DNA from: Escherichia coli
GTDB taxonomy: Bacteria > Pseudomonadota > Gammaproteobacteria > Enterobacterales > Enterobacteriaceae
NCBI RefSeq assembly: GCF_001677475.2
Contig: NZ_CP015229.1
DNA: 64,000 nucleotides
Direction: 5' to 3' (one strand)
Below are positions 58,077-60,520 of this stretch, piece after piece. Position 1 is the stretch's first letter. The number at the start of each line of letters is the position of its first letter. Both the position numbers and the translations under genes were made by a program. The notes beneath the pieces are model-generated. The model was not told the DNA's origin and made no database searches. It worked only from the letters and a program-made list of their open reading frames with translations.

Positions 58077-60520
58077 ATGAAAACGAAAATCCCTGATGCG
58101 GTATTGGCTGCTGAGGTGAGTCGCCGTGGTTTGGTAAAAACGACAGCGATCGGCGGCCTGGCAATGGCCAGCAGCGCATTAACATTACCTTTTAGTCGGA
58201 TTGCGCACGCTGTCGATAGCGCCATTCCAACAAAATCAGACGAAAAGGTTATCTGGAGCGCCTGTACAGTTAACTGTGGTAGTCGCTGCCCGCTACGTAT
58301 GCACGTCGTGGACGGTGAAATCAAATATGTCGAAACGGACAATACCGGCGATGACAATTACGACGGCCTGCACCAGGTTCGCGCCTGTCTGCGTGGGCGT
58401 TCCATGCGTCGCCGTGTCTACAATCCGGACCGGCTGAAATATCCGATGAAACGAGTCGGGGCGCGCGGTGAAGGCAAATTCGAGCGCATTAGCTGGGAAG
58501 AAGCCTACGACATCATCGCGACCAATATGCAGCGCCTGATCAAAGAGTACGGCAACGAGTCTATCTATCTGAACTATGGCACCGGTACGCTGGGCGGCAC
58601 CATGACCCGCTCCTGGCCGCCGGGAAATACCCTGGTCGCGCGCCTGATGAACTGCTGCGGCGGCTATCTGAACCATTACGGCGACTACTCCTCCGCGCAA
58701 ATTGCGGAAGGTCTGAACTATACCTACGGCGGCTGGGCAGATGGTAACAGCCCGTCGGATATCGAAAACAGTAAGCTGGTAGTGCTGTTTGGTAATAACC
58801 CAGGCGAAACGCGAATGAGTGGCGGCGGGGTGACTTATTACCTTGAACAGGCTCGCCAGAAATCTAATGCTCGCATGATCATCATCGATCCGCGCTATAC
58901 CGACACCGGTGCCGGGCGCGAAGATGAGTGGATCCCTATTCGTCCGGGAACAGATGCCGCACTGGTTAACGGTCTGGCGTACGTCATGATCACCGAAAAC
59001 CTGGTGGATCAGGCATTCCTCGATAAATATTGCGTTGGCTACGACGAGAAAACACTGCCAGCCAGTGCGCCGAAAAATGGTCACTATAAAGCTTATATTC
59101 TGGGTGAAGGGCCAGATGGCGTAGCTAAAACGCCGGAATGGGCCTCGCAAATCACCGGTGTTCCGGCAGACAAAATCATCAAACTGGCTCGTGAAATCGG
59201 CAGTACCAAACCGGCGTTTATCAGCCAGGGATGGGGCCCGCAGCGTCACGCTAACGGTGAAATCGCAACCCGTGCTATCTCGATGCTGGCGATTCTGACC
59301 GGTAACGTTGGTATTAATGGAGGGAACAGCGGCGCGCGTGAAGGTTCATACAGCTTACCGTTTGTCCGTATGCCGACCCTCGAAAACCCGATCCAGACCA
59401 GCATTTCTATGTTTATGTGGACCGATGCCATTGAACGTGGCCCGGAAATGACGGCGCTGCGTGATGGTGTGCGCGGGAAAGATAAGCTGGATGTGCCGAT
59501 CAAAATGATCTGGAACTATGCCGGTAACTGCCTGATTAACCAGCATTCTGAAATCAACCGTACCCATGAAATCCTTCAGGATGATAAGAAGTGCGAGCTG
59601 ATTGTGGTTATCGACTGCCACATGACCTCATCGGCGAAATATGCTGACATCCTGCTGCCTGACTGCACCGCTTCCGAACAGATGGACTTTGCACTGGATG
59701 CATCCTGCGGGAATATGTCTTACGTGATTTTCAACGATCAGGTGATTAAACCGCGCTTTGAATGTAAGACCATCTATGAAATGACCAGCGAACTGGCAAA
59801 ACGTCTTGGCGTTGAGCAACAGTTTACTGAAGGCCGTACACAGGAAGAGTGGATGCGGCATCTGTATGCCCAGTCGCGGGAAGCGATTCCTGAACTGCCA
59901 ACGTTTGAAGAGTTCCGCAAGCAGGGGATCTTTAAAAAGCGCGCCCACAAGGGCATCACGTTGCTTATAAAGCCTTCCGTGAAGATCCGCAGGCAAATCC
60001 ACTGACCACGCCATCGGGTAAAATTGAGATTTATTCGCAGGCGCTGGCTGACATTGCCGCTACCTGGGAATTGCCAGAAGGCGACGTGATCGATCCACTG
60101 CCGATCTACACGCCGGGCTTTGAAAGTTATCAGGATCCGCTGAACAAACAGTATCCGCTGCAGCTTACGGGTTTCCACTATAAATCTCGCGTTCACTCAA
60201 CTTACGGCAACGTTGATGTGCTGAAAGCGGCTTGCCGTCAGGAGATGTGGATCAACCCGCTTGATGCGCAAAAACGCGGTATCAACAACGGCGATAAAGT
60301 CAGGATCTTTAACGATCGTGGTGAGGTTCATATTGAGGCGAAAGTGACGCCACGAATGATGCCGGGCGTGGTCGCACTGGGTGAAGGTGCCTGGTATGAC
60401 CCAGATGCAAAACGTGTCGATAAGGGCGGTTGTATCAACGTACTGACCACTCAACGTCCGTCTCCTCTCGCTAAGGGGAATCCGTCACATACAAACCTTG
60501 TTCAGGTTGAAAAGGTGTAA
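58077..60520 (+). pseudogene. dmsA: DMSO reductase catalytic subunit dmsA, interrupted by a -1 frameshift near 59943
   Basis: Tat signal SRRGLVKTTAIGGLAMASSA and Mo-bisPGD enzyme sequence in frame 0 to a stop at 60003-60005; the remaining ~190 aa continue in another frame from 59936 to 60520; total 2444 nt, one short of the 2445 expected for an 814-aa protein. Confidence 0.8.

Follow-up and report, generated by a model that had tools for sequence, protein, structure and literature searches.

A young one-base deletion in codon 623 very probably leaves dmsA an ordinary frameshift pseudogene in a sub-clade of a divergent E. coli-like lineage

Here we describe a disrupted dmsA gene in a 64-kb stretch of an Escherichia coli contig (NZ_CP015229.1), the whole of which we call the window. 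The membrane-bound DMSO/S-N-oxide reductase DmsABC has DmsA as its catalytic Mo-bisMGD subunit. At this locus the window has a disrupted dmsA that does not encode an intact DmsA in a single frame, and the one-base deletion responsible is real and inherited, not an assembly error. We consider it very probable that this gene is a young loss-of-function allele created by the loss of one base in codon 623, that is, an ordinary frameshift pseudogene. The event is of a well-known kind.

The gene occupies positions 58077-60520 on the plus strand, as do the other features of this locus given below. When the whole K-12 coding sequence was mapped onto it, dmsA measured 2444 nt, with one gap relative to the 2445-nt reference, which is the shortfall that an earlier note, made from the letters alone, had claimed. 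Alignments to intact dmsA genes placed the missing base, the A in the middle of GAC (Asp623), between window positions 59943 and 59944. In a 92-column pairwise alignment with the intact dmsA of strain 14EC033 we observed one gap and no substitutions, the junction reading GCGCG-CCCACAAGGG in the window and GCGCGACCCACAAGGG in the intact gene. The deleted A thus aligns outside any homopolymer or repeat. The same alignment revealed that the note's guess at the original context, ...CGC GAC CCA CAA GGG... (KRDPQG), was exactly right, and the alignment to K-12 dmsA (b0894), run as the note had proposed, confirmed both the reference residues it had given and its length arithmetic. Across the interval from serS to dmsC (57839-62013), aligned to K-12 with MAFFT, the dmsA deletion was the sole indel, alongside 82 substitutions.

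Frame 0 encodes DmsA through Arg622 (CGC, 59940-59942) and then continues with AHKGITLLIKPSVKIRRQIH, 20 wrong codons that end at a TGA at 60003-60005. The truncated frame (58077-60005) therefore comprises 642 codons, 622 native and 20 out of frame, and its product has the predicted junction ...GIFKKRAHKGITLLIK. In the -1 frame, a TAA at 59933-59935 is followed by an open stretch that begins at 59936 and closes with the TAA at 60518-60520; its translation, KAR + PQGHHVAYKAFREDPQANPLTTPSGKIEIY...LVQVEKV, carries on with native residues 624-814. Translation of both frames thus upheld the two-frame split that had been proposed for dmsA. Within this orphaned 3' part, gene callers predict a putative 144-aa ORF (60086-60520) with a GTG start and a weak AAGG upstream.

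The surroundings of the gene are those of K-12. The serS-dmsABC-ycaC locus has the same operon order, dmsA itself has 98.3% nucleotide identity, and the intergenic region between serS and dmsA, including the dmsA promoter region (57839-58076), shows no indels and two substitutions. As the note had stated, dmsB and dmsC are intact, and both are full length as in K-12: dmsB (60531-61148; 205 aa) matches TIGR02951 with 268.3 bits (cutoff 214.1) and has its own TAAGGAG Shine-Dalgarno sequence, and dmsC (61150-62013; 287 aa) matches PF04976 (DmsC). Unlike K-12 dmsA, however, the copy in the window is 1 nt short in codon 623, so that the full-length protein of 814 aa can no longer be encoded.

Assembly errors most commonly take the form of single-base indels, and the rarity of the dmsA deletion could point in the same direction. 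The site is covered by 5,422 of the 5,426 complete RefSeq E. coli genomes, and neither the deletion nor the two-frame arrangement was present in any of them (best match 99.5%, 1 gap); likewise, the 41-mer spanning the junction was not found in a scan of the GTDB species representatives. The note had left open whether the true genome might have an intact dmsA obscured by a sequencing or assembly error. Against this stands the recurrence of the same deletion elsewhere. An exact-product look-up returned the 642-aa product on 13 contigs, and the matches listed correspond to four places: GCA_018682865.1, GCA_002516285.1 and the Logan contigs SRR25942434 and ERR10434813, which are listed for 11 and 9 samples, respectively. 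The DNA of all four is 100% identical to the window wherever they overlap. In two of them a P2-like prophage sits directly behind serS, and other carriers lack it; thus, the carriers are not copies of one isolate. Look-ups with the DmsC allele of the lineage, listed in 93 blocks, and with its FtsK allele added the carriers GCA_012665465.1, GCA_025810455.1 and SRR3929499; the second of these matches the window without a difference across 23,497 bp. Overall, the deletion is carried by at least four separate NCBI assemblies and by Logan contigs listed for at least 20 samples; some of the NCBI assemblies may have been built from these same runs, but several distinct isolates remain even so. The carrier contigs reach 231 kb.

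Close relatives that retain the base complete this picture. The sister haplotype in GCA_019141245.1 (with 15 similar places) has the A and no split of dmsA, and is otherwise identical to the window over the 6,851 bases compared. Since this identical-flank sister was assembled with the A, the local sequence does not provoke a systematic sequencing error, and the missing A is not homopolymeric. In addition, dmsA is the only frameshifted gene among the approximately 55 K-12 orthologues in the window, where all other length differences are in frame. This indicates that the assembly is not generally indel-prone, and we rejected the idea of an indel-ridden assembly, as the other ~54 orthologues are all unframeshifted. 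The same lesion in independent assemblies, with the intact allele in close relatives, is what one would expect of a heritable frameshift pseudogene. Consequently, of the two options in the note, real pseudogenisation is borne out by several assemblies and many runs in two genomic contexts, and an artefact is for practical purposes refuted.

Next to the deletion itself, the domain content of the two pieces defines what has been lost. Against the NCBIfam DmsA model NF011566, the 642-codon frame matched model positions 1-628 of 814 with 1491.8 bits, and the orphaned frame (59936-60520) matched positions 623-814 with 446.6 bits. The curated cutoff of this model is 1600 bits, so each piece alone scores below it; there is no full-length single-polypeptide match to the DmsA model (NF011566 / TIGR02166), and the two pieces span it only jointly. 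Similarly, only the repaired protein has the complete three-domain architecture, with PF04879 (Fe4S4) at residues 56-116, PF00384 (Molybdopterin) at 119-576 and PF01568 (Molydop_binding) at 695-806. The break falls between the molybdopterin domain and this final domain (domain IV), which lies wholly downstream, in the other frame. The truncated product therefore retains its Tat signal peptide along with the Fe4S4 and molybdopterin domains, and loses the last 192 residues.

In the DMSO reductase family, the C-terminal molybdopterin-dinucleotide-binding domain closes over the bis-MGD cofactor. Our model suggests that the frameshift in codon 623 would add 20 wrong residues, end translation at 60003-60005 and yield a protein without this C-terminal cofactor-binding domain. 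Because the domain that covers the cofactor is removed, the truncated DmsA would be inactive, unable to hold the cofactor, to mature or to be exported as an active enzyme. DmsB and DmsC would then be left without their catalytic partner. Translation of dmsA now ends 525 nt ahead of dmsB, and since ribosomes would leave the mRNA at that distance, the expression of dmsB and dmsC is probably lowered by polarity.

Could a functional enzyme still be made from the split gene? One route would be ribosomal slippage. An A_AAG tetramer (frame 0 AAA AAG) at 59936-59939, 4 nt upstream of the deletion, is the only known -1 slippery motif placed to send ribosomes into the downstream frame. That frame opens at 59936, right after a TAA, and a tRNA paired with AAG at 59937-59939 can shift to AAA at 59936-59938, so a -1 slip of tRNA-Lys would produce a DmsA of 814 aa in which Ala-Arg replaces Arg-Asp (FKKARPQG instead of the native FKKRDPQG; predicted junction peptide ...GIFKKARPQGHHVAYK) and perhaps partial function. 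Given a stimulator, no tetramer slips more in E. coli than A_AAG, at 5.6%, but this value is reached only with a strong pseudoknot, and bare Z_ZZN tetramers give 0.147% over a background of 0.112% (PMC4066793). No such stimulatory structure was found at this site: the 71 nt of RNA downstream of the motif fold no better than shuffled sequence (z = -0.79), and the upstream AGGGGA lies just 4 nt from the motif. The site resembles the programmed -1 sites of dnaX and the IS3/IS911 family (A_AAG / A_AAA_AAG) in having A_AAG where a -1 shift restores the frame. In contrast to those sites, it is not a full X_XXZ_ZZN heptamer, as the preceding base is T, and it has neither significant downstream structure nor a well-spaced Shine-Dalgarno-like element. 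Moreover, A_AAG is ancestral, being present in intact dmsA genes, and was not acquired with the deletion, which is too young for visible selection on a recoding signal. We thus consider slippage into a partly working DmsA very unlikely and rejected a programmed frameshift, on the downstream fold and the tetramer efficiencies (PMC4066793). By the same token, we give little credence to the idea that the allele is a natural hypomorph with a trickle of full-length DmsA from low-level -1 slippage. Transcriptional slippage was also rejected, the A run being just 5 bases.

A second route would be a two-piece enzyme: the C-terminal domain would be translated on its own from the GTG at 60086, as a 144-aa polypeptide, and would assemble non-covalently with the N-terminal fragment of 642 aa. 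Split architectures do occur in this superfamily, as in formylmethanofuran dehydrogenase, where FwdB and FwdD are distinct subunits that correspond to these domains. Here, the 144-aa ORF holds the entire Molydop_binding domain, and its GTG start has AAGG 6-9 nt upstream. Nevertheless, this start signal is weak, native residues 623-670 would be missing from the assembly while 20 foreign residues are added, and the C-terminal piece has no Tat signal of its own. There is no sign of selection on the arrangement, and the split dates back no further than the sub-clade. An enzyme of this kind is, in our view, extremely unlikely, and the simple frameshift pseudogene remains the preferred reading.

With regard to its age, the deletion is very young. 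The repaired 814-aa DmsA differs from that of K-12 by a single residue (H737N) and, as an allele, is very common in E. coli (25,593 blocks). At the nucleotide level, synonymous changes account for 39 of the 40 differences from K-12 and for 12 of the 13 that lie beyond the break. Since the substitutions are nearly all synonymous and the repaired allele is common, strong purifying selection acted on dmsA up to the time of the deletion. The zero-SNP sister (GCA_019141245.1) in turn indicates that the deletion arose inside a clonal lineage. In our model it arose a single time, and recently, within the clonal lineage of this divergent E. coli-like organism; a small sub-clade has inherited it.

A separate question is whether positive selection, and not neutral decay, drove the loss of DmsA in this sub-clade. 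Many isolates share the allele and are otherwise identical over 23.5 kb, which suggests that the sub-clade has spread, and dmsA has been broken independently in Shigella sonnei deposits. However, a neutral mutation hitch-hiking in a clonal spread would look the same, and a single origin of the deletion is seen in the lineage, with no parallel hits within it. Positive selection therefore seems improbable to us. Phase variation was rejected as well, the deleted A not lying within a repeat.

The Shigella sonnei deposits contain 511-aa and 144-aa fragments annotated as 'anaerobic dimethyl sulfoxide reductase subunit A', and disruption of dmsA thus recurs. As in the window, the catalytic subunit is disrupted and a C-terminal ORF is orphaned; the 144-aa ORF is even identical in sequence. 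Their mutations are nevertheless independent and lie at other positions, and the 642-aa product is specific to the sub-clade of the window (8-13 contigs). A search of the literature on dmsA pseudogenes in E. coli found nothing that bears directly on this case; the variant described in PMC6137255 is a missense SNP in Salmonella and does not make a pseudogene. Besides DmsA, E. coli possesses six molybdenum S-/N-oxide reductases, among them the DmsA paralogues YnfE and YnfF, and strains deleted for dmsA are affected comparatively mildly, with other reductases induced in compensation (PMC12096835). For these reasons, we hypothesize that the loss of DmsA is probably tolerated through the paralogous S-/N-oxide reductases.

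How the base was lost may be reflected in the sequence around it. The deletion created a perfect 4-bp inverted repeat, GCCC-ACAA-GGGC (59943-59954). As the intact allele reads GACCC-ACAA-GGGC, the deletion removes the single bulged base of a small quasi-palindrome, and RNA folds predict a hairpin whose stem grows from 3 bp in the intact allele to 4 bp in the window. Such a change is the signature of template-switch 'quasipalindrome correction'. The deletion is possibly a footprint of this process, though with four pairs it may equally be a coincidence.

In practical terms, the split of dmsA in this lineage is genuine, and the gene should be annotated as a frameshifted pseudogene and not 'corrected'. 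We predict that carriers are without DmsABC activity, the reduction of S- and N-oxides being left to YnfEFGH or to Tor-type enzymes. The deletion also provides a clean single-base marker for one sub-clade of the divergent E. coli-like lineage, and offers a small, well-dated case in which redundancy among molybdoenzymes permits the loss of a catalytic subunit. Beyond the annotation of the strain, its significance is small.

The window as a whole is collinear with K-12 from ybjH to ycaD, except for one 2.5-kb block, and its last 7 kb hold serS, dmsA, dmsB, dmsC, ycaC and ycaD in K-12 order. It is 97.1-98.3% identical to the best of the 5,426 complete RefSeq E. coli genomes, none of which reaches 99% over stretches of 6-24 kb. 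As these best matches scarcely exceed K-12 itself, the lineage lies outside the phylogroups in the complete RefSeq set; our guess is that it is Escherichia cryptic clade I. Because no complete E. coli matches closely, we also considered a Shigella-type decaying genome. This is unlikely, given the collinearity of the 64-kb window with K-12 outside the one block, the single broken gene in it and the carrier contigs of up to 231 kb.

The 2.5-kb block (19354-21901), absent from K-12, lies between ybjP and ybjQ. Its only large ORF (19950-21752, plus strand) encodes a 600-aa pentapeptide-repeat protein, not a transposase; PF13599 matches its residues 366-440 (E = 2.4e-5). Of the 5,426 complete E. 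coli genomes, 1,122 cover at least 80% of the block; it is annotated there as 'pentapeptide repeat-containing protein', and in some of them IS1 interrupts it.

Between serS and dmsA, sister strains of the same clone (3 places) have a P2-like prophage with integrase, Cox, Ogr, gpD and a Hok-like gene, and intact-dmsA strains of other lineages (4 places) have prophages at the same spot. In the window, the site (approximately 57861-57880, just downstream of serS) is empty. The exact FtsK allele of the window was found on 11 contigs only; among the matches listed (3 places), the dmsA deletion is present in two, and the third contig breaks off within the prophage, short of dmsA. This ftsK (50504-54337) has a linker 52 aa shorter than that of K-12, in frame (1277 versus 1329 aa).

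A few other genes of the window also depart from K-12. In ybjM (5135-5512), a premature stop (Q120*) lies six codons before the K-12 stop, and potH (11180-12124) lacks three codons near its N-terminus, in frame. Two genes are more divergent than the window average of ~98% identity to K-12: ybjP (18820-19341), at 89% and with a different N-terminus, and artJ (14711-15442), at 93%.
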